From a virus (Duplodnaviria > Heunggongvirae > Uroviricota > Caudoviricetes > Crassvirales), in the IMG/VR virus record IMGVR_UViG_3300042691_023995, positions 1 to 64,000 of that record: DNA of 64,000 bases. The stretch is one strand, 5' to 3'. Positions 14,155 to 64,000 of the stretch are shown in pieces (within the stretch, counting starts at the first letter, position 1; each line of letters begins with the position of its first letter). Both the position numbers and the translations under genes were made by a program. Below the pieces are notes generated by a model that worked only from the letters and a program-made list of their open reading frames with translations, did not search any database and was not told the DNA's origin.

Positions 14155-14182
14155 ATTTTTTAATCACCTAAAATAAAGCAAA

Positions 14183-15355: not shown

Positions 15356-15387
15356 TAGTAGGATAGTAACCTAGATTATATTAACCT

Positions 15388-15437
15388 AAGCCAGAGGTGA
15401 GAGGATACAAACTCAGATCCTCTGGCTTATTTATTTA
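15388..15437 (+). terminator. rho-independent terminator candidate
   Basis: Perfect 10-bp inverted repeat aagccagagg / cctctggctt (15388-15397 / 15419-15428) followed by atttatttag. Confidence 0.5.
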
Positions 15438-15444
15438 GAACAAC

Positions 15445-16008: not shown

Positions 16009-16009
16009 T

Positions 16010-17516: not shown

Positions 17517-17530
17517 ACTTCTTACGTAAA

Positions 17531-17815: not shown

Positions 17816-17826
17816 ATCAATAACCC

Positions 17827-18663: not shown

Positions 18664-18673
18664 CTGACTAAAA

Positions 18674-18740
18674 AAGCCTTGTTTGTTGGTTTTCAAGGCT
18701 TCTCCCTGGGGTTTCAACCCTGGGGAGTTTTTATTTTATA
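18674..18740 (+). terminator. terminator candidate (two hairpins plus T-run)
   Basis: aagcctt / aaggctt stem (18674-18701), then ccctgggg tttcaa ccctgggg, then agtttttatttt. Confidence 0.45.
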
Positions 18741-18842
18741 ACAAAGTTAGTTAGTACCAATAATGAACTTCGTTAAAATAATTTGGAAAATATCAAAAAA
18801 CTTTCGTACCTTTAGGCCAATTTTAATCAAACAAAACCGTAA

Positions 18843-32100: not shown

Positions 32101-32316
32101 TACGAGAATCTGTACAACTATCGCTACGATCCTAGATTCAGGGCTATCAATATGAACCCTCTGGCTCAGTTTAACATTCCCCAACTTGCAGATTACACTC
32201 CTGAGGAACTTCGTGCTATGGCTCTTCTTAGAGAAAAAGAGAGCAAAACCACCAAGAAATCCTCTGAGGAGAAGAAAAGAAATGGCGGTATTGCCAAAGC
32301 ATTTAAAAATCTCTAA
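29143..32316 (+). CDS. Gly-zipper / Lys-rich large internal protein (tape-measure-like or ejection protein), 1057 aa
   Basis: GGGGGLGNIANVL and ITGITGENAGGNIGGTIGKTAGMFFGPVGSMVGQAAGQLIGSAL (GxxxG zipper). Repeated KAQxGE motifs. C-terminal coiled coil. Confidence 0.5.
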   Translation: MKKQMLKIAGVKSEKEFYKKFPTEKDFMAKHGKAFKKAQIGSYIGGESDAGFQPVNFQEMYDAVDYGVTGSTDQMRKDEQLRQAQIKAAQEESGKGGGGGLGNIANVLQSEELMTALSSAAGAARKGKKIKKAQPGEVIESDTPGGMGRPLPPELRQDEFDIEEKPGGDFLKQISKYAGPAGKIVEGIQQLKEEKKALQRAQQMQGVSDVVRQAANTRPEETKRRYVRPEDITNTGEEFFPIYGVGTNVLAKDGASVGGGEIMNTFAPNTLYDDLGYEPLNESERLKQFYYGGKMRTAQTGLEAFAQAGGGDMASQLITGITGENAGGNIGGTIGKTAGMFFGPVGSMVGQAAGQLIGSALDRKPQQIKKAKEATQRNIKATALQSGFQGGQAQYTSFMQDGGTTSPYEWVSHTWQPQVIATFGEHKVSQLLRPPKDADMLRAGGHLKEYTPPSARAMSTERPNFQMGGELQTHWGGYAEPMSQNPYLPGTGETVMFRGQSHDESDGRGNTGIGITYGGNPVEVERGEPMFELQEGGEIDPATGEPKKSGVVLGNIKITKAFADMLGDTKAEGMKFKTYGADLSKQENKQNKLIEKALDRIDNMNVETSIDKIAADTAMIDIYGGNAKLKDLADKKINAASLQNAINDTKEEGFLKITDRGDVRAEKGAKIPKAQTGEDVPKIDEKSYDYLKGLYESAKQEEGKKGGGPATLRFQQEYHKLAKPFAERIIASEPLTRFGKKKGYPVTDVRSNEDSIFGKRTKQYMAALDEAEKQKPVVPVEEGKPGPKVEPIKPVTEKTTEDTIDVEEDKTKRNYWMDIFNQVAPYLRPSDVEDLDPNQLAGEMYALATNQVQPVYAQTFTPQLTVPYDISLQDILNENRATTRAQQRLVGYNPALQSQLSAQEYSANQRVLGEQFRMNQAFKNQIYKENRDKLDQANLANLQILDTQAQRQAEALSKTKATTQAALNSIASKYAQNKLENRTLATYENLYNYRYDPRFRAINMNPLAQFNIPQLADYTPEELRAMALLREKESKTTKKSSEEKKRNGGIAKAFKNL

Positions 32317-49900: not shown

Positions 49901-52001
49901 ACCTGCTGTGGACTTATACAACTACATCAGGAAAGTTAATGACGACTATAGATCTATTGGATATTTAGGAAGAGGAGAAGAAAGGGTGTTCTTACCATGG
50001 GTGAGAAAGAGTTTAGTGGAAACACTTATGTCTGGTGGCAGGGTGAATCTATTTGAACAGTTCCTAAAGTCTATATCTGTTGATCCAAATTCAGAAGTGG
50101 GTCTTGGTAAAATGGACCAGTACACTGGTAAACCAATTGACGAGATTCCTAAATACTTCACTACAGAGATTAAGGAGGACGTGAGTGAGGACTTATTCAG
50201 GAACCTGGCTCTATATAACACCATGGCTCTTAGATATAAGTATCTTTCAGAGATTGAAGAGCAGGCTTTGGGTTTGGTTGACATAGAGCAAAACAAAGGA
50301 TCAATTGCCACTTCTTGGTTCTCAAAGACCCAATACGACAAGAAAACTGGAAAGCTCATCACTGTTCCAAATAATAGCAAGAACACTGAGCTTATTGATA
50401 GCATGGTGAAGGGTATCATCTATGGACAGAAATATCTGAAGAATGATACGTTTGACCAGGCTCTTGGAAAGCTAACCAACGTTGGTGAAACGATAAACAA
50501 AAAACTTGGTGTGAAGATATTCCCAGAAGGATTAGAGGGAAGAATCATATCAATGAATAAATCTATTGATACACTGAACAAAACATTCAGTCTCCAAGCT
50601 ATGGGTCTGAACCCTCTGTCAGCCACTTCCAACTTGTTTGGTGGCACATCTCAGTCAATTATTAATAGTGGAAAATACTTTACAAAGGGAGACTATCTCG
50701 CTGCTGAAGCAAAGGTGAATGCTAAATGGCTCAACTTTATATCCACTGAGGAAAAGAAAAAGATTATCGGTGCCCTAGATTACTTCCTTCCTCTTACAGA
50801 AGACTTCTCTAGGGATATTGCTAATGAACTGTCTTTGGGTAAGTTGAGTCCTGATGGGATACAGAACTTCCTCATGAGCCTCATGAGAAACTCAGACAAG
50901 CACGTACAAACTGTTAACTTCCTTGCTTACATAGGTAACTCTATTGTAGTGGATGGACAGGTGGTAAATGCTAGGGAATACCTACGCACCACTCCTGAAT
51001 ACTCAGATATGTATTCTGGTACAACAGAGGAAAGACAAGAAAGAGAGAAACGCTTTGAGAAGGATGTTGAGAAGCTTGTAGAAGAAAAGGGAGTGATGAA
51101 GGTAGGACAAGTGGTTGATAATAAGTTTACTATACCTGGCGTAGATAGAAAATCTGAATCAGTGATTGAGCTCAGAAGGAAGATACAACAAGTGAGCAAG
51201 GATGCTCTTGGTAACATGACAGATGACGCTAGGAGAATGATTGACATGAACATATATGGAAATTCTTTCATGTTGTTCAAAAAATGGATTCCAAGACTGG
51301 TGGATGTTAGGTTTGGTGACCTGAAATACAACTCAGCTTCTGATGCTTATGAATGGGGTAGGATGCGTGTTGCGTTTAGCATGCTATCTCTTGACGTTAT
51401 TAAAAGCATAAAGAGGCTAAGAAACTCTCTTGTAGGTAACCAGGCTGGTGTGGATGATATGAGACAGATGTTTGAGAAGAAGAAGGAGGAATATGAGACA
51501 GAAACAGGTAAAGAGCTGGATATGACAGAAACCGAGTTTGTAGACTTGGTAAGAAGAAGTATACAGTCTCAGATGATTGATCTTATGTTCTACCTCACAC
51601 TGATAGGATTGTTCATGGCTCTGAAGGCAAATGCCCCAGATGAGGATGAGGATGAGGTGGTTAGAAACAGATATAGGTTTATCATGAGGGCTACAGACAA
51701 GCTTAAGGATGAGATTGCCTATTTCTACAATCCAGCCAACTTCTCAGCCCTTGTGGCAGGGGGTATATTCCCAGCCATCAGCCAGCTTGACAACTATGGG
51801 AAGTTCTTAAGCAACTTCATGAAGGAAATGTTTGGGGTGATTGTGGGTGACCAGGAGATGAGAGATGACGCTTTTGCTATAAAATACCTTATGAAATCCT
51901 TCCCAATTACAAATCAGCTGTCCCAATATCTCCCTGTGTTTGTTCCAGATGTAGCTAAAGACCTAGGAATTAAAATGCAGTCAAGATCAGGTATAAGGTA
52001 A
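46977..52001 (+). CDS. giant 1674-aa virion protein with a PD-(D/E)xK-like nuclease motif
   Basis: Its start overlaps the upstream stop. SEIKIYDPKTNKAGTIDLVAITKDGKVNIIDWKF (about 48400-48490) fits an E...hhD...hh(D/E)xK nuclease motif. Confidence 0.5.
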   Translation: MQIMSKCALDIRKDIVATVGRKLTEKGAIVQGDVGYFPNPSRAGAAINDINSEFKTSIVKESEKGSFLIEPSDDLINRYFEQYKRQEEGEAGQLQEEERLRGGYTEEQRGEFFQLEQTETSAASPATIAKIKDFLERIGVNVKEYDSIVVNGVKQDANAAALITQKLIQIVQGKEGVALPEEAMHFALEIIKQTNPALYNKLLKEINNYQFYKQILADYGAHPLYQTADGKPDIRKLKDEAIAKVLAETVINQNEGSVENPEHLAKVESWWSQIVEWLKNLFNIKSGFDQAALAVLSGEEIGTVEDIRAEEGAAYLQKTKQEDSIDRLKAMDSRLSIKDVEEEGKKEPRYFLDGVTKILKRVSDDVKDWYSRRFSNNEITKTEKDKAIDDIKRDKGTKGHSDQDYLIRGLNDGRGGILVDENGYLRQDPLDDSGYVPQMDPNDPERVIYETLKENLRERLASFGESTRFLSEIKIYDPKTNKAGTIDLVAITKDGKVNIIDWKFMDLNVDVYEDVPWYKIAAWKNQMDQYKTMLINAYGFKSQDFGQTRMIPIRTVYSGGTLLGIEIGAVDPKDITDAYLMPVGLEEEATGNEQIDALLKKLNAAYRTLSEKKALPSEKKEKAVQLNTLMSAIRQLQIRQNIEPLLEEAKLLNNYIQKVINRFETEWKDKERITPEEEAQRSAFLKEIRDAEKMLGTYTSLDVDLSDLFLSGGSENEKLETEVAKTVRVARALGDKLNRTKTAFVRDVVGRSEKVEDIIKEEKEIGIVARWFSDTASLQLNSAKVLFRKSNRALAKASMDSVDLARELQEIEGRYKKWATAKGLNKKDYFNIIKKKGKNELIDEFNPEFYKELKSRIDRKDPDLFNWVKENIDIKAYNDFLDEQIKKETEEINQKYKDRMEFDRATGNFYLSEEQERKKEWELNKMKKAYNTSSTTSAGWLQYNFIKRFPKVEKWQSQEWKELFKKDAAGNYVNKPAVDLYNYIRKVNDDYRSIGYLGRGEERVFLPWVRKSLVETLMSGGRVNLFEQFLKSISVDPNSEVGLGKMDQYTGKPIDEIPKYFTTEIKEDVSEDLFRNLALYNTMALRYKYLSEIEEQALGLVDIEQNKGSIATSWFSKTQYDKKTGKLITVPNNSKNTELIDSMVKGIIYGQKYLKNDTFDQALGKLTNVGETINKKLGVKIFPEGLEGRIISMNKSIDTLNKTFSLQAMGLNPLSATSNLFGGTSQSIINSGKYFTKGDYLAAEAKVNAKWLNFISTEEKKKIIGALDYFLPLTEDFSRDIANELSLGKLSPDGIQNFLMSLMRNSDKHVQTVNFLAYIGNSIVVDGQVVNAREYLRTTPEYSDMYSGTTEERQEREKRFEKDVEKLVEEKGVMKVGQVVDNKFTIPGVDRKSESVIELRRKIQQVSKDALGNMTDDARRMIDMNIYGNSFMLFKKWIPRLVDVRFGDLKYNSASDAYEWGRMRVAFSMLSLDVIKSIKRLRNSLVGNQAGVDDMRQMFEKKKEEYETETGKELDMTETEFVDLVRRSIQSQMIDLMFYLTLIGLFMALKANAPDEDEDEVVRNRYRFIMRATDKLKDEIAYFYNPANFSALVAGGIFPAISQLDNYGKFLSNFMKEMFGVIVGDQEMRDDAFAIKYLMKSFPITNQLSQYLPVFVPDVAKDLGIKMQSRSGIR

Positions 52002-52070: not shown

Positions 52071-52466
52071 ATGCGAACTGCTGCAATTTGCCCAACATGT
52101 CCCTCATATGAGAACGCTTTGTGCGTGCTCTATAACGGAGAATATCTGACCAATATCGACGTAAACCCTTTAGACTCTCTAGAGGTAGCCCTTGGCAAGA
52201 TAAATGATAACCTCGTGCCTGTATCAGGAACAGGAGCTCCCACAGCTGGAGCTATCTATTTAGGACAGCTCTATGTAAGAACCACCGTGGCTCCAAACCT
52301 CTACTTCGCTAAGTCAACAGGTACAGGTGCTTTGGACTGGAGGATTCTCCTTTCTATTCCATATACAGGAGCCCCTGAATATGCTGATAACGCTGCTGCC
52401 ATAGCTGGTGGTTTAACAGATGGTCAAGTCTACCGTACAGGTGACGTATTGAAAATCGTACATTAA
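52071..52466 (+). CDS. small protein (131 aa) immediately upstream of the mega-fibre
   Basis: Complete ORF, Gly/Ala/Thr-rich with an N-terminal CPTCP...C motif. The fibre gene starts 9 nt after its stop. Confidence 0.45.
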   Translation: MRTAAICPTCPSYENALCVLYNGEYLTNIDVNPLDSLEVALGKINDNLVPVSGTGAPTAGAIYLGQLYVRTTVAPNLYFAKSTGTGALDWRILLSIPYTGAPEYADNAAAIAGGLTDGQVYRTGDVLKIVH

Positions 52467-52474
52467 TTTAGAAC

Positions 52475-55400
52475 ATGAACGTACTTCCTAATATACTAAG
52501 TTATGGAAGTTCAGGTTCATCTGGTACATCAGGTGAAGCTGTTCCCCATATACCAGACTTTTTAGAAAGCTTTCCCCAGCAGGTTGAGACACCTGAACCA
52601 ATCGATCCTACGGTTGGTAAGCCTTCCTTTTTGTCTAAACTGTATAATAGCCCACAGTATCAGACTCCTGATCCTGAGAATACGTCTATAAATTATAGTG
52701 AGAGTTTCTTCAATACACCTCTCCTTTCTAATATTGTTGGCTCTGAATCCTCTGAGGGTGATGGCCAATCATTCATAAATAAGCTCTTTGGTACAACCCA
52801 TTGTGAGCCTAAGTTCACATCCGCCCCTGTGGTATGTGCAGCTAACCCATGTCCTATCACATTGAACGCCACCTGTGTGTTCTATGAAGGACCCAATTTG
52901 ATCTATACAGGAATTAACACTAATGACAACCTCCAGACAGCTCTTGAGAAGATAGAGGCAGCTATTGCTGACGAACTTGCAGGTAGCTCTGGTACAAGCG
53001 GTACGTCAGGCACCTCAGGAACATCTGGCACATCAGGTAGCTCTGGAACCTCAGGAACTGACGGTAGTGGGGGAAGCAGTGGTACATCTGGCACTAGCGG
53101 TATAGACGGAACAAGTGGCACAGCAGGAACTAGTGGCACTTCTGGTACCACTGGTACATCTGGAAGTAGTGGAACTAGTGGAACAGATGGAAGTGGAGGT
53201 AGTAGTGGTACATCAGGGACTAGTGGAACCTCTGGGACATCTGGCACATCTGGTACTACAGGAACCTCTGGTACTACGGGTACAAGTGGCACCTCTGGTA
53301 CAGATGGTAGCGGTGGCACCTCAGGCACTTCTGGCACTTCTGGGACCAGTGGTACAACTGGCACCTCAGGGACAAGTGGAACTACAGGAACTAGTGGTAG
53401 TAGTGGAACTAGCGCTACATCAGGTACATCTGGGACATCAGGAACCTCTGGAAGTTCAGGTACAACTGGCACTAGTGGAACGTCTGGAACAACAGGTACC
53501 TCTGGTAGCTCAGGCACTACAGGCACGTCTGGTACCTCAGGTACTTCTGCAACAAGTGGTACGAGCGGCACCAGTGGTACAGATGGAACAGGAGGCACAA
53601 GCGGTACATCTGGTACATCAGCCACTAGTGGAACTAGTGGTACAACAGGAACCAGTGGGTCAAGTGGCACCAGTGGAACTTCAGGAACATCAGGAACTGA
53701 TGGTAGTGATGGTAGTTCTGGTACATCAGGAACATCTGGTACAGCTGGAACTAGTGCAACATCTGGTACTTCTGGCTCTTCTGGAACTGCAGGAACCTCT
53801 GCAACTAGCGGAACATCAGGCACTTCTGGTACGTCAGCCACTGATGGAACAGGGGGAACTAGTGGTACGTCAGGTACATCTGCCACCTCTGGATCATCAG
53901 GATCTTCTGGAACTGATGGAACAGGAGGTACATCTGGATCGAGTGGTACAAGTGCAACCAGTGGTTCATCTGGAACCTCTGGAACTTCTGGTAGTAGTGG
54001 AACAACAGGTACATCAGGCACTAGCGGTACAAGTGGTACGTCTGCTACAGACGGTACAGGAGGTACAAGTGGAACAAGTGGAACGTCAGGAAGTAGTGGA
54101 ACCACGGGTACATCTGGTACTACAGGTACGTCAGGCACAAGTGGAACCAGTGGTACAAATGGTTCACCTGGAACATCTGGTACATCTGCAACATCAGGAA
54201 CTAGTGGTTCAAGTGCTACATCAGGCACATCTGGAACTAGTGGAACAACTGGTACATCAGGAAGCTCTGGCTTGAGTGGAGATAGATATGCCACTACATC
54301 AAGCACAACATATACATTACAAGCAGCTGGTAATACAGGCACAATCACTGTAGGAACAGGACTAGCCTATACAGTGGCTCAGTCTATTATAATTGCCTAC
54401 AATGCAACAAATTACCAAGAGGCTGAGGTGACATCGTACAACTCTGGTACAGGTAGTTTATCATTCACCACCATTACACAGGTGGGAAGTGGAACATATA
54501 GTTCATGGTTTGTAAACCTAGATGGTGCAACAGGAGGAGATGGTTCTAACGGTACATCTGGTACAAGTGGAACATCTGCTACATCTGGCACTTCAGGCAC
54601 TACAGGAACTTCAGGCACTAGCGGTAGTTCAGGAACTACAGGTACATCTGGTACGTCTGGAACTCCTGGTACATCAGGAACCAGTGCTACTAGTGGAACC
54701 TCAGGAACTACAGGTACTTCGGGCACAACAGGTACTAGTGGCACATCAGGCTCATCAGGCACCTCAGGTACTGATGGATCTGGAGGAACAAGTGGAACCA
54801 GCGGCACCACAGGCACATCTGGCTCAAGTGGAAGTAGTGGATCTTCAGGAAGCAGTGGTTCTAGTGGAACATCTGCCACTTCTGGAACATCTGGTACCTC
54901 TGGCACAAATGGTAGTGCAGGCAGTAGTGGAAGTAGTGGGTCCTCAGGATCAAGCGGTAGTGCTGGAACGAGTGGTACAGCAGGTAGTCCTGGTACGTCT
55001 GGTACTAGTGGTAGTTCAGGCACATCTGGTACAGCAGGTACAACAGGAACTTCTGGAACCTCAGGTACAACAGGTACCTCTGGAACTAGTGGATTAACAG
55101 GAACTTCTGGTACATCAGGGGTGAATGGTACTAGTGGAACATCTGGAACCTCAGGGTCTAGTGGCACTGCTGGTAGCTCAGGTACAGCTGGTAGCTCAGG
55201 AACTAGTGGAACTGCAGGTACATCTGGAACCAATGGTTCTCCAGGTACCAGTGGTACAAGTGGGTCTAGCGGTTCCTCTGGATCATCAGGAACAACAGGC
55301 ACTTCAGGTTCTAGTGGTACAAGTGGAACATCAGGCTCTAGTGGTACGTCTGTAGCTGTAGCTGGTACACAGGAATACATTGTTAAGTTTACATCAGCCA

Positions 55401-58400
55401 CAACAATTGGAAACAGTGCCACATGTCAAAAGGCTAGTGGTGACCTCTGTGTCAACCTAGCAGGTGGTATTGGTGTGGATGTTGGTAAGGGTGGTGGATC
55501 TATTGCTACAAACACAGCAGTGGGTAACAGTGCTCTGTCAAGCAACACCACTGGTGCAGGGAACGTTGCTGTTGGATATTTTGCTCTAAGATGTAACACT
55601 ACAGCTAATAATAACATTGCTATTGGTAAAAATGCTTTATGTGCTAATGTATCATCAACTGATCTTACAGCAGTTGGAGATGCGGCACTTAAAGCAAACA
55701 CAGGTGCTTATAATTCAGCTTTTGGTGCTGCTGCTTTGTATAAAAATACAACAGGAACTAGTAATACAGCCATTGGTTTAAGAGCACTACAAGAAAATAT
55801 TACAGGCAGTAATAACACTGCTGTTGGTAGGTTAGCTCTATTCTGTAACACGGCATCAAATAATACAGCAGTAGGTACTTGTGCACTAAGAAGCAATACC
55901 ACTGGTATTTATAATACAGCTCTTGGAACAAATGCACTCAAATCTAACACTACAGGTGGAAGAAACGTTGGTATTGGTCTTAACGCTTTGATTAGTAACA
56001 TTACAGGTGCTCATAACATAGCTGTTGGATATGTTGCTTTAGGTTGTAATGTTTCAGGCAACAATAACATAGCTCTTGGTAGTTTAGCTTTACAATATAA
56101 TACAGCCTCCAACAACACTGCTATAGGATTTTTTGCATTAAGAGCTAATACTACAGGTAATTACAACACAGCTATTGGTAGAAATGCGTTAAAGGCTAAT
56201 ACTATAGGTAGATATATTGTGGCTTTGGGAGATAGTGCCTTATATTCAAACACAACAGGTGAACGAAATACCGCTGTAGGATATGGTACTTTAGTATGTA
56301 ATACTGTCGGAGCTAACAATACAGCTCTTGGATTCCAAGCACTCCGTCAAAATACGGCTTCCAATAACACAGCCGTTGGTTTCTGTGCTTTAAGAAGTAA
56401 CACCACTGGTGTATATAATACTGCATTAGGTTTTCAATCTTTAGCATCTAATACAACAGGTAATAGTAATACTGCAGTTGGTTTACAATCACTTTTATAC
56501 AATACTAGTGGTGTTCAAAATACAGCTGTAGGTAGAAGTACACTATTCTGTAATACTACAGGAAGTAATAACGTAGCTTTAGGTCAGGCTGCTCTTAGAC
56601 TTAACACTATAGGTAATAGAAACATAGCCATAGGTAGAGCTGCTATGGAAGCCAATACTACTGGTGCGGATAACGTAGCTGTAGGACATTATGCTCTTAT
56701 AGCTAATAGTGTTGGTACAAACAACGTAGCTATTGGTAGAAATGCTTTGTATTGTAATACCGCATCAAATAACACAGCAGTTGGATTTAGTGCTTTACGT
56801 AGTAATACTACTGGTACAAACAACGTAGCAGTAGGTTATTGTGCATTAAGAAATAATACAATTGGCACAGGAAATAATGCATTTGGACATGGTTCACTAA
56901 TCTGCAACACAACAGGAGCTAATAATGTTGCTGTTGGTACATCTTCTTTAGGTAGAAATACAATTGGTACAGACAATACTGGTATTGGTGTAAATACTCT
57001 TTTATATAATACAACAGGTATAAACAACACAGCTGTTGGTAGAAGTGCTCTTCAAACAAATACTACAGGAACTCTTAATACAGCAGTAGGTGTTAATTCA
57101 TTGTTAGTTAATACTGTAGGTTCAGTAAATGTTGCTGTTGGTGTAGGTGCTTTACAATCTAATATATCTGGTAATAACAATATCTCAATAGGTGTTAACT
57201 CCCTTGTAACAAATCAGGTAGGTAGCTCTAACGTAGCTGTGGGTAGAGATGCTTTGTTTTCTAATACAGCATCAAACAATACAGCTATAGGCCACTATTC
57301 TTTAAGATGTAATACTACTGGTACACCTAATACAGCTGTTGGTGCTAATGCTCTTGCTTCAAATACAATTGGAGATATTAATACAGCAATAGGTGTAAAT
57401 GCTTTAAATTCTAATACAACAGGAAGAGGAAACGTCGCTGTAGGTCACACAGCATCCAATTCAAATGTTGTTGGTTCTTATAACACTTCAGTAGGTGTAA
57501 GTGCATTAAGATGTAATACTGCATCAACCAATACTGCAATTGGATTTTATTCTATGAGAAATAACTCCACAGGAACTGTCAATACAGCTCTTGGAGTACA
57601 ATCATTAGCATATAATACAACTGGTGCTAGAAACGTAGCAATAGGACATCAGGCACTTTTCAGTAATGTAGTAGGAGTAAACAATACATCGGTAGGTTAT
57701 TTAGCTCTACTTTGCAGCACTGCATCAAACAACACAGCCGTAGGTTATTGCTCTCTTAGAAGCAATACTACTGGTACATCAAATGTTTCTGTAGGTGGGT
57801 TTTCAACAAGATTAAATACCACTGGTGTACACAACTCTGCTTTAGGATTTGCTGCTCTTGAAACAAATGTAACAGGAAATTATAATGTTGCCGTTGGATA
57901 TAGATCATTAAACCAAAACAAAGCTAGCAACAACACAGCAGTTGGATTTAATTCTTTAAGATTTAACACTACAGGTGCGTCAAACGTAGCTGTTGGTAAA
58001 AATGCGTTAGTAAGTAATACTACTGGTGCGCAGAATGTTGCAATGGGGTATAATGCCTTACTTGCAAACACCTCAGGTGGTAGCAATACTGCTTTGGGAA
58101 TGAAAGCATTGTATTCTAACACAGTATCAAACAATACAGCTGTTGGTCGATATGCAATGTGTGCTAATACAACAGGCACCCAAAACACAGGTCTTGGATT
58201 TGGTGCATTAAAAACTAACACTACAGGTAATACAAACACAGCTGTTGGATATAACGCTTTAACATACAACACAACAGGAGGTCTTAACACAGCAATGGGT
58301 GTGTTGGCTCTTGAAAAGAATACAACTGGGTGCTATAATATAGCAATAGGACCATCTGCTCTTAGAAACAATACTACAGGTGCTAGTAACGTTATTATAG

Positions 58401-61400
58401 GTAGAGATGCTGGGTATGCTAACACAATAGGATGTGCTAATACAGCAGTGGGTACTAACTCTTTAAAATGTAATACAACAGGAGGCAGAAACTCTGCATT
58501 AGGATCTGGTGCCTTAAATGCCAATACAACAGGATGCTTTAACACAGCTGTTGGTTTTAACTCTTTAACAGCAAACACAGTAGGAAGTTTAAATACAGCC
58601 CACGGTGTTCAGGCATTAAAATCTAACACCACAGGAAATAGAAATACAGCTTTAGGTTTAAATGCATTATATGCAAACAACGGTAGTTACAACGTAGCAG
58701 TTGGTACCTATTCAACACAAAATACAACAACAGGTTCTTGTAACGTAGCTGTGGGTTATGCAACGTTAGTTGCTAATACAACAGGTATTAGAAACGTAGC
58801 AATAGGTGTTTGTGCTTTAAGTGCAAACCAAGCATCTTCAATTGTTGCTGTGGGACCTAATGCCTTAAGATGTAATACAACAGGAGCAGGAAATACAGCA
58901 CTTGGTAATCAGGCATTGTTTGCTAACACAACAGGAGCAAATAATACTGCTGTTGGACAGAATGCAATGTTATGTAATACTACTGGAGGTGGTAACTCTG
59001 CACTTGGTGATTACGCATTAAGGAGTAACACAACTGGTAATAATAACGTAGCAATTGGTAGATTAGCAGCATCATGCAATACTGTTGGTTCTTATAACAT
59101 AGCAATAGGTAGAGACTCTTCACAAAATAATGTATCAGGAAGTAATAATATTGGTATTGGTTTCCAAGCATTACTACAGAACACAGCGTCAAATAATACT
59201 GCTCTAGGATATAGAGCATTAAGAAGCAACACTACTGGTGCTTATAATGTAGCAGTAGGTGCATGCTCATCAATGTACAACACCACAGGTGGTATAAACA
59301 GTGCATTTGGTTTTAGAGCAATGCTTAGAAACACCACTGGTATTCAAAATAATGCATTTGGTTTCTTAGCGCTTTGTAACAGCAATGGTAACTATAATAA
59401 CGCATTTGGTGTTTGTGCTCTAAGACAAAACACGACAGGTGCTCGTAATACAGCTGTGGGCCATAGATCCATGAACTATAACACAACAGGTAGTTATAAC
59501 ACAGCCATGGGTATGTGTTCTTTGTTGTGTAACACCACAGGTTCTAGTAATGTTGCTTTAGGATTTGCCTCATTACAATGTAACTTAACAGGTACAGACA
59601 ACGTTGCAGTTGGTGTTAATTCGTTATTTAAGAATTGTTCTAATAATAATGTTGCAGTTGGTGCTGCGGCTATGTTGGAAAACACAACTGGTACAAACAA
59701 TGTTGCAATTAGTACCAGTGCGTTGAGGAATAATACAACAGGAGTAAGCAATGTTGCTATAGGATTTTATTCTCAAAGAGTTAGTGTTGCTTCTAACAAC
59801 ACTTCAGTGGGCGTTAGTACACTGAGATGTAACACAACAGGTACTAATAACGTAGCACTTGGAATTTCAGCGTTGTATTCAAATACAACAGGTGTTTCAA
59901 ATGTTGCTATAGGATCTGTTTCTTTGGCAGGCAATACAATAGGTCAACACAACGTAAGCATTGGTAGAGTAGCTCTTAGAAATAATAGTACAGGTAATAG
60001 TAACGTCGCTCTTGGTAGCTATGCTCTTTATGCAAATGTTACAGGTTGCAATAACATAGCCATGGGTTATTTGTCTTTAGCTTGTAATACTGCTTCTAAC
60101 AATACAGCAGTGGGATATGCATCATTAAGATTTAATACCTCTGGTACAGACAATGCAGCATTAGGTCAATGTGCATTGATTTTCAATACTACGGGTGCAC
60201 AAAATACAGCTGTTGGTAAACAAGCTATGATGTACAACAACGTAGGTTGTAGAAACACAGCAGTGGGTACTTTTGCATTGTTTAGAACAAGGTGTAGCAA
60301 TCAAGTGGCTGTAGGATATGGTGCTTTAAGATATAACATAACAGGTGTTGGTAATACAGCAGTGGGTTATACCGCAGGAAGAAATAACGTATGTGGAAAC
60401 AATAATACATCATTAGGAAATTCAGCATTAACTTCTAATACAGCATCATATAATACAGGTATAGGAGCTCAGGCATTAACAAGTAATACAACAGGTGGTA
60501 ACAATACAGCTGTTGGTATGCAATCAATGTTGCTTAATACAACAGGGTATCGAAACACAGCATTAGGTGTAAGAGCATTATGTGCTAATACTACAGCAAA
60601 CAGTAATACTGCACTAGGGTATAGTGCACTAAGAAAAAATATAACAGGCGCAGATAACACCGCTGTAGGAGGATATGCTCTTGCATGTAACACATCAGGA
60701 CGTCAAAACGTAGCTATTGGTAAGGATTCATCTAGATACAATCAAACAGGTATTTATAATACATCTCTAGGTGTAGCCTCTTTACAATCAAATACAGCAG
60801 GTAGTCGTAACACTGCTATTGGTTATCAAGCTTTATTATTGAATACAGCTTCTAACAATACAGCAGTGGGATATCGTTCCTTGAGGAATAATACTACAGG
60901 CTATTGTAATACGGCTGTAGGTAGATTTGCTTTATTTGCTAATACAACAGGCTTTAGAAACAATGCTTTTGGATCAAGAGCACTCTATTCCAATACTACA
61001 GGTGTTAGAAATGTGGCAATGGGTGATAGAGCTCTGGCAGCAAATACAATAGGTTTAAGTAATAGCTCCTTTGGAACTTATGCTCTCTATACTAACACAA
61101 CAGGATCTCTTAACGTAGCTGTAGGAAGCCAAGCATTATTTTATAATCTAGTTGGCTCAGCTAACACTGCTGTTGGAGCTGATGCGCTATTGTGTAACAA
61201 AGCATCAGGTAACACAGCCGTTGGTTTTTGTGCCTTAAGAACTAATACTACTGGTGCTCAGAATGTAGCTGTGGGGTACGGAGCATTGAGATTAAATACC
61301 ACAGGTCAGTATAACACTGCTTTAGGATATCACGCTTTACGTAATAGCACAGGATCACAGAACAATGTTGGTTTAGGAATGCATGCAGGATGTGCTATTA

Positions 61401-64000
61401 CTACAGGTAGTAATAATATTGCAATTGGTAGGGACGCTTTATCTACTGGCCAAACCATGAACAACAACGTTGCTGTAGGTAGAGATGCGCTACTTTTAAA
61501 TACAGCAGACCACAATACCGCAGTAGGATTCTGCGCACTTAGAAGTAATACGACAGGTAATAGAAATACCGCTGTTGGTAGATATACTTTAAGATCTAAT
61601 ACAACTGGTAAATACAACGTAGGTGTAGGTGTTAATGCACTAGAATCAAATGCAGTGGGAGATAATAATACTGCTGTTGGTATGTTTGCACTTACAGCTA
61701 ACACAGCATCAAACAACACAGCGGTTGGTTTCTGTTCTCTTAGGAGTAATACTACAGGAGGTAATAATACAGCTGTTGGTAGATACTCACTAAGAACAAA
61801 CACTGTAGGCTACAATAATACTGCTCTAGGTGTTAATTCACTACAATGTAATGTATCAGGTAGATGGAATACAGCAGTTGGTTTTGTATCATTAAATTTA
61901 AACACTACAGGTATAGACAATACAGCATTAGGTGGAAACTCACTATATGCTAATACAACAGGAAACAGTAATACAGCGCTAGGTACCAACGCTTTGTGTG
62001 CTAATACAACAGGTGGATTCAATGTTGCTGTTGGACAGTCTGCATTAAGAGTAAATACTGCATCTAATAATACGGCTGTAGGTAGTTGTGCCTTAAGATA
62101 TAATACCACTGGTACACAAAACGTAGCTCTTGGATTTGAAGCTCTACTATTAAATGTAGGTGCTAATAACAATACAGCTGTAGGAGCAGTGGCTATGAGA
62201 AGAAATACCAGCGGTGCTTACAATACAGCTATGGGTAGGGCTGCTCTTTATGCTAACACAATAGGAACTAGTAACGTTGCCATTGGATATAGATCATTAT
62301 TTTCTAATACCACTGGAGATCATAATGTTGGTGTTGGAACTAACTCATTAAGATATAATACTACAGGAGGTTGTAACGTAGCATTAGGTAGTACAGCATT
62401 GAGAAATAATACAACTGGTATTCGTAATACGGCTGTAGGTTGTGGTGCTATGTATGGAAACACAGGAGGACAAGCAAATGTAGCTGTTGGATTTAATGCT
62501 AATCAAGCTAACAACACAGGTGGAAGTAACACAGCTATTGGATTTAATTCACTGGCTAATAATAAAGCAGGTAGCAATACAGCTGTAGGTGCTAGTTCAC
62601 TTTATAATAACACTACTGGATTTAATAACACAGCTGTAGGACTTAATGCTTTAGTATCAAACACAACGGGATATAATAACGCTGCACTTGGTGTACAATC
62701 ACTTCAGTGCAATACAACAGGAAGACGTAATGTTGCGGTGGGTCCAAATGCACTATTCTGTAATACAACAGGACAAAATAACACAGGTTTAGGTTATAGA
62801 TCTGGACAAAATAACCAAACTGGTACAGGAAACGTATCTGTTGGATATTATTCATTAACAGCCAATACAGCTTCAAATAATACAGCATTAGGTGCAAGTG
62901 CGTTAAGAGCCAACACCACTGGTGCTAATAACACAGCTTTAGGTTATGTTGCGTTAAGGAATAATACTACAGGAGCATCTAACGTAGCAATTGGATTTAG
63001 AGCACTTTGTGGCAATACAACAGGTGTAGCTAATATATCCATAGGTGTTCAATCCATGCTATATAATGCAGGTGGCACTGCAAACATAGCTGTAGGATCA
63101 CAAGCATTGTATAAGAACAATGGTTCTAATAACACTGCGGTTGGTCATGAAGCAATGAAATGTAACACAACAGGTAATAGTAATACTGCTGTTGGATCTA
63201 ACGCACTGTTTAAGAATACCACTGGTGTTTACAACACAGCGCTTGGAGGTAATGCTTTACAATGTAACACAACTGGTTGTAGGAACGTTGCTCTAGGTTT
63301 AAATACAATGAGATTTAACCTAACAGGATACCAAAATATAGGAATAGGTGTAAATGCTCTGTTGAACAGCTCATCAAACTCTTGTGACATTGGTATAGGT
63401 GATGGTGCTTTGTGTTCTAATACATATGGTGGTGGAAACGTAGGTGTTGGTATGTTGGCACTGAGCAGCCACAACTGGTACATCAAATCTCACAACGTTG
63501 CTATTGGTACCAGGGCATTGAAAGCAAACACCATTGGTAGCAATAATACAGCTGTAGGAGGATATGCTCTATATAAGAACACTAATGCAGGTGAGAATGC
63601 TGCGTTTGGTTACTTGTCTATGGCGTGCAACACCACAGGTAGTAGCAATGCAGGATTGGGAACCCAAACACTAAAATCCAATACTACAGGTGTTTGTAAT
63701 ACAGCTGTAGGTACAAGAAGCTTATATCAAAACACCATAGGTACTTGCAATACAGCTGTAGGAACATGGGCCCTCTTTAACAACACTACAGGAAGATGTC
63801 ACGTGGCTGTTGGATTTATAGCCAACTGTGCTATAAATGCGAACATCACTAACACTATTGCTGTAGGTACATGTTCTGCTACATCTGCTACAACAGGTCA
63901 CACTGTTTGGGGTAATAGTGGTAACAACGTTTGTAACTGCGTATATGCAGCTTGGTCAAACGTATCTGACTGTCGTGATAAGACCAATGTTGAAACTCTT
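52475..64000 (+). CDS. giant repeat fibre protein, at least 3842 aa and 3'-truncated by the window edge: N-terminal domain, two collagen-like GXY blocks, about 160 x 17-aa beta-solenoid-type repeats and the start of a C-terminal S74-like chaperone domain
   Basis: ATG 52475 is preceded by an in-frame tag at 52469-71. Hand translation of the frame with codon starts at positions equal to 2 mod 3 is open to base 64000, spot-checked at 52.5-53.0, 54.2-54.5, 59.0 and 63.9 kb. Absent from the ORF track only because there is no stop in the window; the track shows its antisense and off-frame shadows instead. Confidence 0.85.
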   Translation, partial: MNVLPNILSYGSSGSSGTSGEAVPHIPDFLESFPQQVETPEPIDPTVGKPSFLSKLYNSPQYQTPDPENTSINYSESFFNTPLLSNIVGSESSEGDGQSFINKLFGTTHCEPKFTSAPVVCAANPCPITLNATCVFYEGPNLIYTGINTNDNLQTALEKIEAAIADELAGSSGTSGTSGTSGTSGTSGSSGTSGTDGSGGSSGTSGTSGIDGTSGTAGTSGTSGTTGTSGSSGTSGTDGSGGSSGTSGTSGTSGTSGTSGTTGTSGTTGTSGTSGTDGSGGTSGTSGTSGTSGTTGTSGTSGTTGTSGSSGTSATSGTSGTSGTSGSSGTTGTSGTSGTTGTSGSSGTTGTSGTSGTSATSGTSGTSGTDGTGGTSGTSGTSATSGTSGTTGTSGSSGTSGTSGTSGTDGSDGSSGTSGTSGTAGTSATSGTSGSSGTAGTSATSGTSGTSGTSATDGTGGTSGTSGTSATSGSSGSSGTDGTGGTSGSSGTSATSGSSGTSGTSGSSGTTGTSGTSGTSGTSATDGTGGTSGTSGTSGSSGTTGTSGTTGTSGTSGTSGTNGSPGTSGTSATSGTSGSSATSGTSGTSGTTGTSGSSGLSGDRYATTSSTTYTLQAAGNTGTITVGTGLAYTVAQSIIIAYNATNYQEAEVTSYNSGTGSLSFTTITQVGSGTYSSWFVNLDGATGGDGSNGTSGTSGTSATSGTSGTTGTSGTSGSSGTTGTSGTSGTPGTSGTSATSGTSGTTGTSGTTGTSGTSGSSGTSGTDGSGGTSGTSGTTGTSGSSGSSGSSGSSGSSGTSATSGTSGTSGTNGSAGSSGSSGSSGSSGSAGTSGTAGSPGTSGTSGSSGTSGTAGTTGTSGTSGTTGTSGTSGLTGTSGTSGVNGTSGTSGTSGSSGTAGSSGTAGSSGTSGTAGTSGTNGSPGTSGTSGSSGSSGSSGTTGTSGSSGTSGTSGSSGTSVAVAGTQEYIVKFTSATTIGNSATCQKASGDLCVNLAGGIGVDVGKGGGSIATNTAVGNSALSSNTTGAGNVAVGYFALRCNTTANNNIAIGKNALCANVSSTDLTAVGDAALKANTGAYNSAFGAAALYKNTTGTSNTAIGLRALQENITGSNNTAVGRLALFCNTASNNTAVGTCALRSNTTGIYNTALGTNALKSNTTGGRNVGIGLNALISNITGAHNIAVGYVALGCNVSGNNNIALGSLALQYNTASNNTAIGFFALRANTTGNYNTAIGRNALKANTIGRYIVALGDSALYSNTTGERNTAVGYGTLVCNTVGANNTALGFQALRQNTASNNTAVGFCALRSNTTGVYNTALGFQSLASNTTGNSNTAVGLQSLLYNTSGVQNTAVGRSTLFCNTTGSNNVALGQAALRLNTIGNRNIAIGRAAMEANTTGADNVAVGHYALIANSVGTNNVAIGRNALYCNTASNNTAVGFSALRSNTTGTNNVAVGYCALRNNTIGTGNNAFGHGSLICNTTGANNVAVGTSSLGRNTIGTDNTGIGVNTLLYNTTGINNTAVGRSALQTNTTGTLNTAVGVNSLLVNTVGSVNVAVGVGALQSNISGNNNISIGVNSLVTNQVGSSNVAVGRDALFSNTASNNTAIGHYSLRCNTTGTPNTAVGANALASNTIGDINTAIGVNALNSNTTGRGNVAVGHTASNSNVVGSYNTSVGVSALRCNTASTNTAIGFYSMRNNSTGTVNTALGVQSLAYNTTGARNVAIGHQALFSNVVGVNNTSVGYLALLCSTASNNTAVGYCSLRSNTTGTSNVSVGGFSTRLNTTGVHNSALGFAALETNVTGNYNVAVGYRSLNQNKASNNTAVGFNSLRFNTTGASNVAVGKNALVSNTTGAQNVAMGYNALLANTSGGSNTALGMKALYSNTVSNNTAVGRYAMCANTTGTQNTGLGFGALKTNTTGNTNTAVGYNALTYNTTGGLNTAMGVLALEKNTTGCYNIAIGPSALRNNTTGASNVIIGRDAGYANTIGCANTAVGTNSLKCNTTGGRNSALGSGALNANTTGCFNTAVGFNSLTANTVGSLNTAHGVQALKSNTTGNRNTALGLNALYANNGSYNVAVGTYSTQNTTTGSCNVAVGYATLVANTTGIRNVAIGVCALSANQASSIVAVGPNALRCNTTGAGNTALGNQALFANTTGANNTAVGQNAMLCNTTGGGNSALGDYALRSNTTGNNNVAIGRLAASCNTVGSYNIAIGRDSSQNNVSGSNNIGIGFQALLQNTASNNTALGYRALRSNTTGAYNVAVGACSSMYNTTGGINSAFGFRAMLRNTTGIQNNAFGFLALCNSNGNYNNAFGVCALRQNTTGARNTAVGHRSMNYNTTGSYNTAMGMCSLLCNTTGSSNVALGFASLQCNLTGTDNVAVGVNSLFKNCSNNNVAVGAAAMLENTTGTNNVAISTSALRNNTTGVSNVAIGFYSQRVSVASNNTSVGVSTLRCNTTGTNNVALGISALYSNTTGVSNVAIGSVSLAGNTIGQHNVSIGRVALRNNSTGNSNVALGSYALYANVTGCNNIAMGYLSLACNTASNNTAVGYASLRFNTSGTDNAALGQCALIFNTTGAQNTAVGKQAMMYNNVGCRNTAVGTFALFRTRCSNQVAVGYGALRYNITGVGNTAVGYTAGRNNVCGNNNTSLGNSALTSNTASYNTGIGAQALTSNTTGGNNTAVGMQSMLLNTTGYRNTALGVRALCANTTANSNTALGYSALRKNITGADNTAVGGYALACNTSGRQNVAIGKDSSRYNQTGIYNTSLGVASLQSNTAGSRNTAIGYQALLLNTASNNTAVGYRSLRNNTTGYCNTAVGRFALFANTTGFRNNAFGSRALYSNTTGVRNVAMGDRALAANTIGLSNSSFGTYALYTNTTGSLNVAVGSQALFYNLVGSANTAVGADALLCNKASGNTAVGFCALRTNTTGAQNVAVGYGALRLNTTGQYNTALGYHALRNSTGSQNNVGLGMHAGCAITTGSNNIAIGRDALSTGQTMNNNVAVGRDALLLNTADHNTAVGFCALRSNTTGNRNTAVGRYTLRSNTTGKYNVGVGVNALESNAVGDNNTAVGMFALTANTASNNTAVGFCSLRSNTTGGNNTAVGRYSLRTNTVGYNNTALGVNSLQCNVSGRWNTAVGFVSLNLNTTGIDNTALGGNSLYANTTGNSNTALGTNALCANTTGGFNVAVGQSALRVNTASNNTAVGSCALRYNTTGTQNVALGFEALLLNVGANNNTAVGAVAMRRNTSGAYNTAMGRAALYANTIGTSNVAIGYRSLFSNTTGDHNVGVGTNSLRYNTTGGCNVALGSTALRNNTTGIRNTAVGCGAMYGNTGGQANVAVGFNANQANNTGGSNTAIGFNSLANNKAGSNTAVGASSLYNNTTGFNNTAVGLNALVSNTTGYNNAALGVQSLQCNTTGRRNVAVGPNALFCNTTGQNNTGLGYRSGQNNQTGTGNVSVGYYSLTANTASNNTALGASALRANTTGANNTALGYVALRNNTTGASNVAIGFRALCGNTTGVANISIGVQSMLYNAGGTANIAVGSQALYKNNGSNNTAVGHEAMKCNTTGNSNTAVGSNALFKNTTGVYNTALGGNALQCNTTGCRNVALGLNTMRFNLTGYQNIGIGVNALLNSSSNSCDIGIGDGALCSNTYGGGNVGVGMLALSSHNWYIKSHNVAIGTRALKANTIGSNNTAVGGYALYKNTNAGENAAFGYLSMACNTTGSSNAGLGTQTLKSNTTGVCNTAVGTRSLYQNTIGTCNTAVGTWALFNNTTGRCHVAVGFIANCAINANITNTIAVGTCSATSATTGHTVWGNSGNNVCNCVYAAWSNVSDCRDKTNVETL
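52982..54280 (+). repeat. collagen-like block 1: about 144 Gly-X-Y triplets, mainly GTS/GSS/GTT/GTD, with rare Gly-to-Ala breaks
   Basis: Continuous ggt-aca/agc triplets with Gly every third codon. Recurring GTDGSGG punctuation. Confidence 0.85.
54524..55351 (+). repeat. collagen-like block 2: about 90 Gly-X-Y triplets including a GSSGSSGSS run
   Basis: Same periodicity, separated from block 1 by a roughly 85-aa non-collagenous insert (DRYATTSSTTYTLQAAGNTGTITVGTGLAYTV...SWFVNLD). Confidence 0.85.
55511..63900 (+). repeat. coding tandem array of about 160 diverged 51-bp / 17-aa units, consensus N-[TV]-A-[VLI]-G-x-x-[AS]-L-x-x-N-T-[TA]-G-x-x (YadA-head / Hep_Hag-like)
   Basis: Units are diverged at the nucleotide level but conserved at the protein level. 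A marker unit NTASNNTAVGxxALRxNTTG recurs about every 10 units (about 16 times). Confidence 0.85.

Follow-up and report, generated by a model that had tools for sequence, protein, structure and literature searches.

A close known counterpart of the fibre described here is the class of phage fibres and tailspikes ending in an S74 intramolecular chaperone, which includes K1F endosialidase, T5 pb1, SPO1 gp2.52, Methylophilales phage Venkman gp55 and the tail fibre of Pelagibacter phage HTVC112P. In both, the same type of repeat leads straight into an S-D-x-R-x-K-T-N motif, and by analogy the fibre would be trimeric and self-cleaving. Known examples have 500–1300 aa, whereas the product of the gene found at the end of a 64,000-nt stretch of viral DNA (the window) is 3951 aa long, of which the repeats take up 2780 aa and a collagen-like stalk 710 residues; its S74 domain is read over 12 residues.

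The repeat region was also compared with the YadA-like heads of trimeric autotransporter adhesins (YadA 1p9h, EibD 2xqh, UspA1 3pr7, BoaA 3s6l, BpaC 7o23 and CbpF 9gh4), which have about 9–16 turns of about 14–16 residues. The window solenoid differs in its 17-residue turn and its 165 uninterrupted turns, and neither YadA_head nor Hep_Hag of Pfam matched at E ≤ 0.1 in three solenoid-containing segments (1000, 1000 and 200 aa). Assignment as a trimeric autotransporter adhesin was rejected: no coiled-coil stalk and no membrane-anchor barrel is found at the C-terminal end of the window, and an S74 start, a collagen-like stalk and a phage virion module are present instead.

Large phage structural proteins with YadA-type repeats are known from cyanomyophage S-TIM4 (ORF108, 2235 aa and thus shorter than the fibre; PMC6224464) and from pelagimyophages ("YadA domain-containing structural protein"). 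Such proteins are implicated in host adaptation (PMC6224464; PMC7029224), and a homologous YadA-domain protein mutates in the course of cyanophage host adaptation (PMC6224464). Proteins of cyanophage P-SSM2 also match the window's repeat. These proteins come from myoviruses, and S-TIM4 ORF108 has no reported collagen stalk and only about half the length of the window fibre. In polinton-like viruses, large modular fibres that reach 3.9k aa join collagen-like repeats to a C-terminal S74 domain (PMC12220804), and this combination is also found in uncultured Caudovirales; there the viruses and hosts differ, and in place of a 165-turn beta-roll the middle of the fibre is made of laminin-G, adenovirus-fibre or PTR domains. 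The tail fibre gp22 and head fibre gp21 of crAss001, a phage with the same crAss-like virion type (muzzle protein), are trimeric and anchored by short N-terminal peptides (PMC10172136), but no sequence similarity to the window fibre was found and no collagen segment is reported for them (PMC10172136). No reports of collagen fibres in crAss-like phages, or of phage Lbo-JY46, were found in the literature searched. Phage entries in BFVD named "Collagen triple helix repeat" have the solenoid fold in common with the window fibre, and this architecture class has already been annotated in uncultured phages.

Genomic context and extent of the fibre gene

The predicted proteins of the window, namely the crAss muzzle protein (PF25731, E 4e-38), terminase, portal and giant late proteins, make up a virion module and assign it to a distant crAss-like phage. 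PHROG families for TerL (6681), portal (6547) and MCP were matched, and the TerL relatives are Cellulophaga phi17:2 and crAss phages at 26–40% identity. The fibre gene is located after a block of cargo-like proteins, away from obvious tail genes, and a 1674-aa neighbour is homologous to cr108_1 gp052. No near-identical phage was present in GenBank, and among GenBank phages no cultured relative was found to carry the fibre gene. The original prediction mentioned neither the crAss-like identity nor a YadA-head-like solenoid.

Frame +1 is free of stop codons from the ATG at 52475 to base 64000 (0 stops in 3842 codons), while the remaining five frames of this region contain 84–441 stops. With a stop expected every ~15 codons from the regional base composition, such a frame would arise by chance with a probability of about 1e-115 (log10 P about -115). 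An in-frame TAG at 52469–52471 precedes the ATG, which begins 9 nt past the stop of the upstream ORF (52071..52466), and the start codon is supported by conservation of the N-terminal peptide in homologues (Table 1). Gene calls on two contigs spanning the fibre gene give a 3951-aa product, which places the stop 109 codons past the window, at about coordinate 64328–64330. Exact-match scans of viral and metagenome contigs with the window's terminal 54 nt gave no match, nor did a scan with 50 nt from one of the related contigs (L002), carried out in order to extend the contig. If collinearity of the window and this contig is assumed, the genome measures at least 99.7 kb, and about 12% of it is taken up by the gene. 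The single open frame, its upstream signals and its continuation beyond the window had all been described in the original prediction and are borne out.

The gene is missing from the ORF list, as also pointed out there, because ORFs running off the source are not listed. The off-frame and minus-strand ORFs of the collagen part are shadow ORFs, and the latter were rejected as genes since they mirror the GGN-ACN-TCN periodicity of the coding strand. Older JGI gene calls on two related contigs (L005 and L006) picked antisense shadow ORFs across the collagen part and left out the fibre ORF, showing that automatic annotation can overlook or mis-call such a gene.

Table 1. Position of the fibre gene, its predicted modules and neighbouring ORFs in the window.
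Feature	Coordinates	Strand	Remarks
131-aa ORF directly upstream of fibre	52071..52466	+	Paralogue of the fibre's three-Cys module at its N-terminus
Fibre gene	52475..64000	+	First 3842 of 3951 codons; stop predicted outside window
Conserved N-terminal peptide MNVLPNILSYGSSGSSGTSG, aa 1–20	52475..52534	+	Candidate docking peptide; conserved in homologues
Pro/Ser-rich extension, aa 21–108	52535..52798	+	Poorly conserved; missing from many relatives
Three-Cys module, aa 109–168	52799..52978	+	C..C....CP......CVFYEG..L.YTGINTND.LQTAL.KI
Antisense shadow ORFs, not genes	52903..55422: 52903..54348 (481 aa), 54412..55422 (336 aa)	-	GGN-ACN-TCN periodicity
Collagen-like block 1, aa 170–604	52982..54286	+	145 in-phase G-X-Y triplets
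Intra-collagen domain, 79 aa (605–683)	54287..54523	+	GDRYATTSS...GQSIIIAY...GSGTYSSWFVNLDG
Collagen-like block 2, aa 684–958	54524..55348	+	92 triplets
Linker/neck, aa 959–1012	55349..55510	+	Similarity to near-identical phage L008 stops at its beginning
Predicted beta-solenoid, aa 1013–3793	55511..63853	+	165 consecutive units
C-terminal cap, aa 3794–3830 (...TIAVGTCSATSATTGHTVWGNSGNNVCNCVYAAWSNV)	63854..63964	+	Kept in homologues just before cleavage site
Predicted Peptidase_S74 chaperone start, SDCRDKTNVETL, aa 3831–3842	63965..64000	+	First 12 residues; other 109 aa past window

Modules of the predicted fibre

Translation and repeat statistics confirm one giant fibre gene with the domain order originally proposed, including two collagen-like blocks (~700 residues proposed, a 710-residue stalk found) and a 17-residue repeat solenoid of ~2800 aa (~160 coils proposed, 165 units found). 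Some details differ. The insert between the collagen blocks is present but measures 79 aa, not roughly 85; the non-repeat C-terminal region exists, from about aa 3794, but the S74 start within it had been missed; and the description of the first 168 aa as globular is unsupported, as aa 1–105 are Pro/Ser-rich and an AlphaFold2 model of aa 96–175 reached a pLDDT of 47, a low confidence at which the model was left unused.

The N-terminus had no Pfam match, and a PDB sequence search with it returned nothing significant. Its first 20 residues may serve as a docking peptide, by analogy with residues 1–26 of gp22 and 1–38 of gp21 of crAss001 (PMC10172136). The three-Cys module, which ends in a predicted helix immediately before the collagen, occurs at fibre N-termini in 50 IMG/VR phage loci and was absent from the GenBank phages searched. 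A similar N-terminus (CPTCPSYENALCVLYNGEYL...LEVALGKIN) is found in the 131-aa upstream ORF, which gave a weak PHROG tail-protein match and, according to tblastn positions, has full-length homologues of 79–99% identity that closely precede the fibre gene in 15 of 50 related loci.

Both collagen-like blocks consist mostly of Gly-Thr-Ser triplets (X being Thr/Ser and Y Ser/Thr; in block 1 mostly Thr and Ser, respectively), with Gly at position 1 in 223 triplets and Ala in 14, the latter including some interruptions of block 1. All four Gly codons are used in a mixed fashion at this position, so the periodicity is kept at the protein level. The Gly periodicity that the original prediction had staked itself on is therefore present in the computed translation, and Pfam Collagen (PF01391) was matched with E 4e-79. 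The Gly-X-Y rule of the collagen family is thus followed, while imino-acid-rich X and Y positions, or another demonstrated stabiliser, are lacking; with almost no proline (4 in 222 counted triplets), the blocks would form a triple helix of uncertain stability. The 79-aa domain between them has no Pfam match and is kept in 21 of 50 related fibres, each time between collagen segments.

This scarcity of proline, together with a mucin-like Thr/Ser composition, would also suit flexible and possibly O-glycosylated spacers, in which case the fibre would be a floppy tether shorter than 0.28 µm. We regard such spacers as rather unlikely, given that 145 and 92 consecutive triplets run without a phase slip, that position 1 admits Gly or Ala only, in four Gly codons and despite DNA identities of 60–80% between repeat copies, and that trimeric modules lie on both sides of blocks recognised by the Pfam Collagen profile.

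Past the triple-helical stalk thus preferred, the solenoid has the consensus N-[TV]-A-[VLI]-G-x-x-[AS]-[LM]-x-x-N-T-T-G-x-x and an autocorrelation peak at lag 17. Its units are of 17 aa (136), 16 aa (27), 18 aa (one) and 19 aa (one), and N1, G5, N12 and G15 are retained in at least 94% of them. A regular 84-residue super-repeat was rejected, as the 16-residue units recur irregularly, every 3–11 units, and recent amplification at the DNA level was likewise rejected, as TRF found no tandem array in the solenoid DNA. Residues 1009–2008 matched PHROG 23837, 4636 and 6002 (virion structural, tailspike) with E 7e-194, 2e-185 and 2e-171, and the last 1000 aa gave similar values. No Pfam family was matched by the solenoid; a PDB sequence search with it returned nothing significant, and a profile of 27 repeat blocks found no adhesin chain, nor any other chain, in the PDB. 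With 49,479 cluster representatives, the repeat is a very abundant one, and no solved structure of it turned up in sequence searches.

A monomer model predicts a solenoid that may be YadA-head-like. Foldseek of this model against the PDB gave no significant match, the top ones being hexapeptide left-handed beta-helices mixed with one YadA head. The 17-residue repeats of the three chains might instead interdigitate into a single triple-stranded beta-helix, like that of T4 gp5/gp12 or of the endosialidase stalk, or might fold as a left-handed beta-helix of the three-sided, hexapeptide-like type; we give this a low probability, and the outcome would be the same fibre, but without three separate YadA-type beta-rolls.

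Following the YadA-like rolls favoured here, the C-terminal cap leads into S-D-C-R-D-K, which conforms to the conserved S-D-x-R-x-K with the cleavage Ser and a Lys five residues later; S3831, D3832, R3834 and K3836 fall in invariant columns of an 87-sequence alignment. The segment WSNVSDCRDKTNVETL aligns to position 1 of the PF13884 profile in Venkman gp55 and in a relative from the same clade (L021), and nearly all of 120 listed short homologues carry PF13884. The alignment consensus runs about 110 aa further, matching the 109 extra codons of the 3951-aa calls; a complete domain of this family has roughly 110–120 aa. From 12 residues, homologues and gene-call length, an S74 domain is predicted, and autocleavage would take place at S3831.

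Size, cassette exchange and putative role

The fibre is the longest of 50 related IMG/VR fibres, of which the complete ones have at most 3390 aa and one, cut by the locus end, at least 3387 aa. Its ranking as one of the largest phage fibres known holds among these relatives but appears overstated more widely, since among the best-scoring 150 of the 49,479 repeat-family representatives, 11, which may be of phage or cellular origin, have at least 3951 aa and up to 5494 aa. It is a large instance of an abundant and already annotated phage fibre class, ordinary in kind and extreme in scale. At a rise of 0.286 nm per triple-helix residue, the collagen would extend over about 203 nm, and at 0.48 nm per turn the solenoid would contribute about 79 nm, roughly 0.28 µm in all, in agreement with the earlier estimate of 250–300 nm as long as triple helix and turn rise are assumed.

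Phage L008 shares 95–98% nucleotide identity with the window both ahead of the fibre gene and along its initial ~1.7 kb (to ~54156), and in collagen block 2 the identity is 90% for protein and 77% for nucleotides. Beyond block 2, it carries a solenoid with a 15-residue period and its own SDERLK motif, for 3020 aa in total. As the similarity ends where the linker begins, the linker is taken as a cassette junction, and since an unrelated solenoid follows the same stalk in L008, the distal part behaves like a host-recognition cassette that can be swapped. Fibres with the full set of modules always have them in one order: anchor, collagen, knob, collagen, exchangeable solenoid and S74.

The gene product is probably a virion fibre (adhesin) that a distant crAss-like podovirus assembles as a homotrimer, and fibre-type PHROG families (tail fiber, tailspike) are matched; trimeric state, attachment site and receptor are what we infer. 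In the proposed mechanism the S74 domain (aa 3831–3951) would trimerise first and put three chains in register, after which folding would run from the C- to the N-terminus through the solenoid and zip up the two collagen-like triple helices. The chaperone would then release itself by a cut at Ser3831, with S3831/K3836 as the Ser-Lys dyad, so that about 3830 residues remain in the mature chain. The N-terminal peptide and three-Cys module may anchor the fibre to the tail hub or to a capsid hexon pocket; a thin proximal collagen-like stalk (about 124 nm, then a small knob or hinge domain, then about 79 nm) would follow, and then a distal rod of approximately 79 nm made of three left-handed beta-rolls of YadA-head type. 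Variable positions 6, 7, 10, 11, 16 and 17 of each turn could provide a long multivalent surface binding a host surface polymer, and the part distal to collagen block 2 would be the exchangeable host-range cassette.

It is very unlikely that the protein is no part of the virion, being instead ejected cargo or an infection-stage adhesin altering the host surface. The gene does come after a block of giant crAss-type cargo-like proteins, and in crAssphage cr108_1 the late strand ends with the gene homologous to that of the 1674-aa neighbour, no fibre following it; yet known external trimeric fibres and spikes contain S74, collagen-like and YadA-like modules, the PHROG matches are to tail fibre, tailspike and virion structural proteins, and cassette swapping is typical of receptor-binding proteins. 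An assembly artefact or pseudogene, with a solenoid inflated or scrambled by misassembly, can be dismissed as exceedingly improbable, for although L005 has a frame-breaking 178-nt deletion in the solenoid and L007 departs from the window inside the collagen block, four metagenome assemblies from different samples (L002, L003, L004 and L006) agree to 1–4 mismatches over 15.5–20.4 kb with the frame open, the solenoid DNA is free of tandem repeats, 3842 codons contain no stop, and relatives have complete genes of 2900–3400 aa.

On the virion-fibre reading, freshwater crAss-like phages appear to have extended their late operon by a final gene for a giant modular fibre. Tentatively, and a little short of calling it probable, we picture trimeric appendages of ~0.28 µm in which ~200 nm of proline-free (Gly-Thr-Ser)n triple helix bears one uninterrupted 165-turn YadA-type beta-roll, as a "fishing line" whose 8.5-kb distal cassette is exchanged wholesale between near-identical phages. 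The accepted picture of phage fibre action is unchanged by the present findings. If such appendages exist, each would measure roughly 3x the 88-nm diameter of the crAss001 capsid and act as a long-range multivalent line, with a beta-roll far longer than any of YadA type solved so far; it would be a natural test case for the stabilisation of Pro-free collagen and for the way in which an S74 chaperone, starting at the C-terminus, brings chains of about 3800 residues into register and folds them. The fixed module order offers a concrete starting point for studying how host range evolves in this uncultured clade.

Open frame and extent of the fibre gene

The + frame from ATG 52475 to base 64000 was found to be a single open run of 3842 codons with 0 stops, as the original prediction had it, and each of the five other frames carries 84–441 stops over the same stretch. 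The local base composition predicts one stop per ~15 codons, which gives so long a run a log10 P of about -115. The in-frame TAG upstream (52469-52471) was likewise confirmed, as was the position of the ATG, whose start lies 9 nt beyond the stop of ORF 52071..52466. The gene is missing from the ORF list because ORFs running off the source are left out of it. On the minus strand, the Pro/Val-rich ORFs 52903..54348 and 54412..55422 were rejected as genes, being antisense shadows of the GGN-ACN-TCN periodicity; on the public contigs L005 and L006 the gene caller picked antisense shadow ORFs of 481 and 336 aa.

The protein of the neighbouring 131-aa ORF is encoded on 17 public contigs. Four contigs from different samples, L002 (JGI 3300032116), L003 (ENA ERZ27247995), L004 (ERZ27247984) and L006 (JGI 3300008339), have 1–4 mismatches to the window over 15.5–20.4 kb and keep the frame open. 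The called product is 3951 aa on both contigs spanning the gene, which puts the stop 109 codons beyond the window's last base, where window numbering would reach ~64328-64330. L002 runs on for ~35 kb more; if it is collinear with the window, the genome comes to 99.7 kb or more, with the fibre gene making up ~12% of it. L005 is without 178 nt inside the solenoid (L005 15360; window 58255-58432), which breaks the frame, and L007 departs from the window inside collagen block 1, from 53259. These differences are probably repeat-collapse assembly errors; they could also be real defective variants. The fibre gene is real and correctly delineated.

Modular architecture of the fibre

Fibre modules (aa counted from ATG 52475) and virion genes of the window
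Feature	Position	Remark
Conserved N-terminal peptide MNVLPNILSYGSSGSSGTSG	aa 1-20	kept in homologues
Pro/Ser-rich variable stretch	aa 21-108	
Three-Cys module C..C....CP......CVFYEG..L.YTGINTND.LQTAL.KI	aa 109-168	
Collagen block 1	aa 170-604	145 in-phase Gly-X-Y triplets
79-aa domain GDRYATTSS...VNLDG	aa 605-683	window 54287-54523
Collagen block 2	aa 684-958	92 Gly-X-Y triplets
Linker	aa 959-1012	
Solenoid	aa 1013-3793	165 units
Cap	aa 3794-3830	
SDCRDKTNVETL, S74 start	aa 3831-3842	
TerL	4122-6149	
Portal	6149-8743	
MCP	10710-12263	
crAss muzzle protein	22285-27360	PF25731, E 4e-38

The predicted domain order was recovered, with a 79-aa insert between two collagen-like blocks, a ~2800-aa solenoid of 165 17-residue-type units and a non-repeat C-terminus. 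Conservation of MNVLPNILSYGSSGSSGTSG among homologues supports the start codon. The description of the N-terminus as globular was not borne out, because the AlphaFold2 model of aa 96-175 is of low confidence (pLDDT 47) and its sole feature is a helix directly before the collagen. In crAss001, whose capsid is ~88 nm across, the head fibres gp21 and the tail fibres gp22, both trimeric, attach through N-terminal residues 1-38 and 1-26, respectively (PMC10172136); this is a precedent for the N-terminal peptide that fits a place on the head as well as on the tail.

Computational translation disclosed the Gly periodicity as 145 + 92 in-phase triplets (Pfam Collagen, E 4e-79), in which position 1 is Gly in 223 cases and Ala in 14, X is Thr in 74% and Y is Ser in 71%. 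The Gly codons are mixed (GGT 91, GGA 83, GGC 39, GGG 10) and TRF finds in the DNA just short-period repeats, 60–80% identical; therefore the periodicity is maintained at the protein level. The insert, here called the knob, is without a Pfam family; 21 of the 50 related fibres contain it, every time between collagen-like segments. Its pattern, GDR[YF]xT[TS]S ... GQSIII ... GSGTY..W.VNLDG (window 54287-54523; related loci L008-L057), describes an uncharacterised module.

Of the solenoid units, 136 are 17 aa long and 27 are 16 aa long, with a single unit of 18 aa and another of 19 aa; their consensus is N-[TV]-A-[VLI]-G-x-x-[AS]-[LM]-x-x-N-T-T-G-x-x, of which N1, G5, N12 and G15 are retained in 94–99% of units and positions 6, 7, 10, 11, 16 and 17 are variable; TRF detects no tandem repeat in its DNA. 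Nearly all 16-residue units read ..NTASN, followed by NTAVGFCALRSNTTG-like turns, and they recur every 3–11 turns, so that the autocorrelation has peaks at lags of 67, 84 and 101 residues. The composition includes 65 Cys, 16.5% Asn and only 1.3% acidic residues. AlphaFold2 with an 87-sequence alignment modelled aa 3587-3842 as a single-chain solenoid (pLDDT 87–95 over regular turns, mean 77.9), and the BFVD matches came from phages and giant viruses, with S74, YadA-like head, LbR_YadA-like or collagen as their annotation. We therefore call the repeat a predicted left-handed beta-solenoid, probably most like the YadA head. Membership of the Pfam YadA_head family was rejected, as Pfam did not detect it in the solenoid, the repeat profile found no PDB chain and Foldseek against PDB gave nothing significant. 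An autotransporter was also rejected.

When the last 200 aa were compared with Methylophilales phage Venkman gp55, SDCRDKTNV aligned with SDARDKTNV, exactly where Pfam Peptidase_S74 starts in gp55. L021, a fibre from the same clade of phages that shares the cassette type and is complete at 2927 aa, has 50% identity across the last 194 aa, and its PF13884 domain (E 8e-12) begins at the Ser aligned with S3831; nearly all of the 120 short homologues listed carry PF13884. S, D, R and K do not vary in the 87-sequence alignment, whose consensus goes on for ~110 aa, in agreement with the 109 codons beyond the window. Judged from these alignments, the 12 C-terminal residues in the window are the start of a predicted S74 intramolecular chaperone. 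Endosialidase-type chaperones trimerise, drive folding and then cleave at Ser; by analogy, the fibre S74 domain should trimerise, drive folding and cut at its Ser.

Genomic context and exchange of the distal fibre

The genes of the window make up a phage virion module. Its TerL shares 40% identity with that of Leptolyngbya phage Lbo-JY46, 33% with those of Cellulophaga phages phi17:2 and phi4:1, and 26–28% with those of gut crAss phages. Giant ORFs of 1057, 887, 3978 and 1674 aa had no family match. The 3978-aa ORF (35053-46989, +), without Pfam or PHROG match, exceeds the visible fibre part in length and comes after the muzzle protein and two large ORFs (29143-32316, 32403-35066); its position makes it a possible crAss-type ejected cargo protein or virion RNA polymerase. 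The C-terminal 160 aa of a 375-aa ORF (16389-17516, +) match PHROG tail/tail-fibre families (E 4e-21 and 3e-14), so at least one further fibre protein, a short one, is probably encoded by this phage.

The 1674-aa protein (46977-52001, +) is a homologue of crAssphage cr108_1 gp052 (22% identity over 90% of its length), the final late-strand gene before the replication genes; in the window clade it is followed by the 131-aa gene and the fibre, which appear to have been added. In 49 of 50 related IMG/VR loci a homologue of the 1674-aa protein (26–99% identity) directly precedes the fibre, and the 131-aa ORF has a full-length homologue in 15. The product of this ORF (52071-52466, +) has a paralogue of the fibre's three-Cys module at its N-terminus and YADNAAAIAGGLTDGQVYRTGDVLKIV at its C-terminus. 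In the database protein P0017 the YADNAAAIAGGLTDGQVYRTGDVLKIV tail motif is fused directly ahead of the CVFYEG module and collagen repeats, which suggests that the two products are functionally linked. P0017, 'hypothetical protein GHT06_007261 [Daphnia sinensis]' at NCBI, has the three-Cys module, Gly-Thr-Ser repeats and then out-of-frame-looking sequence, and is probably phage contamination in the Daphnia assembly.

The fibre N-terminal module matches 50 IMG/VR phage loci, on contigs mostly of 45–117 kb, and most of these fibres have long collagen-like stretches. Complete ones range from ~600 to 3390 aa, many with an SDxRxK end; that of L025, cut by the locus end, is at least 3387 aa. The distal part is of the 17-residue type in the window, L021 and L025, of a 15-residue type in L008, L011, L012, L018, L024, L048 and others, and non-repeat in further types. 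The near-identical phage L008 shares 97.7% and 94.7% nucleotide identity with the window across the genes upstream and the fibre gene's first ~1.7 kb, and its protein identity is 97.6% at the N-terminus, 93% in collagen block 1, 69% in the knob and 90% in collagen block 2. Past that block it carries an unrelated 15-residue-period solenoid of ~2000 aa and its own SDERLK motif (3020 aa in total). This amounts to a whole-cassette exchange of the distal part, which is presumably receptor-binding. The L008 fibre (IMGVR_UViG_3300006875_000022, 10001-19063) has the repeat ...SG.YS.VGGG..NTASG... and a weak match to PF21300 (E 0.004), a family of grass antifreeze beta-rolls.

Proposed assembly, estimated length and known parallels

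All three module types consistently imply that the fibre would be trimeric. S74 would register the three chains at the C-terminus, folding would then run in the C-to-N direction, through the solenoid first and the collagen next, and the chaperone would cleave itself at S3831. The collagen would measure ~203 nm (710 residues x 0.286 nm) and the solenoid ~79 nm (165 turns x 0.48 nm); the earlier estimate of 250–300 nm thus holds, at ~0.28 µm, provided the Gly-Thr-Ser blocks truly form a triple helix.

Searching with the last 1200 aa gave 49,479 matching cluster representatives at E <= 1e-3, of which 6,666 remained at E <= 1e-30. Within the best-scoring 150, a length of 3000 aa or more is reached by 25 and one of 3951 aa or more by 11 (maximum 5494 aa), and a simple triplet-run count found a long collagen stretch in none of these 11. 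The claim of one of the largest phage fibres therefore stands as to its very large scale and not as to uniqueness; the earlier reading, largely right, overstated the latter and was incomplete, missing for example the S74 C-terminus. The kind is already known from a 2235-aa cyanomyophage YadA-domain structural protein that mutates during host adaptation (PMC6224464), from similar pelagimyophage proteins (PMC7029224) and from collagen-plus-S74 fibres of polinton-like viruses, up to 3.9k aa (PMC12220804). The features of this fibre that deserve notice within a known kind are its scale, the uninterrupted solenoid of 165 turns and its crAss-like carrier.
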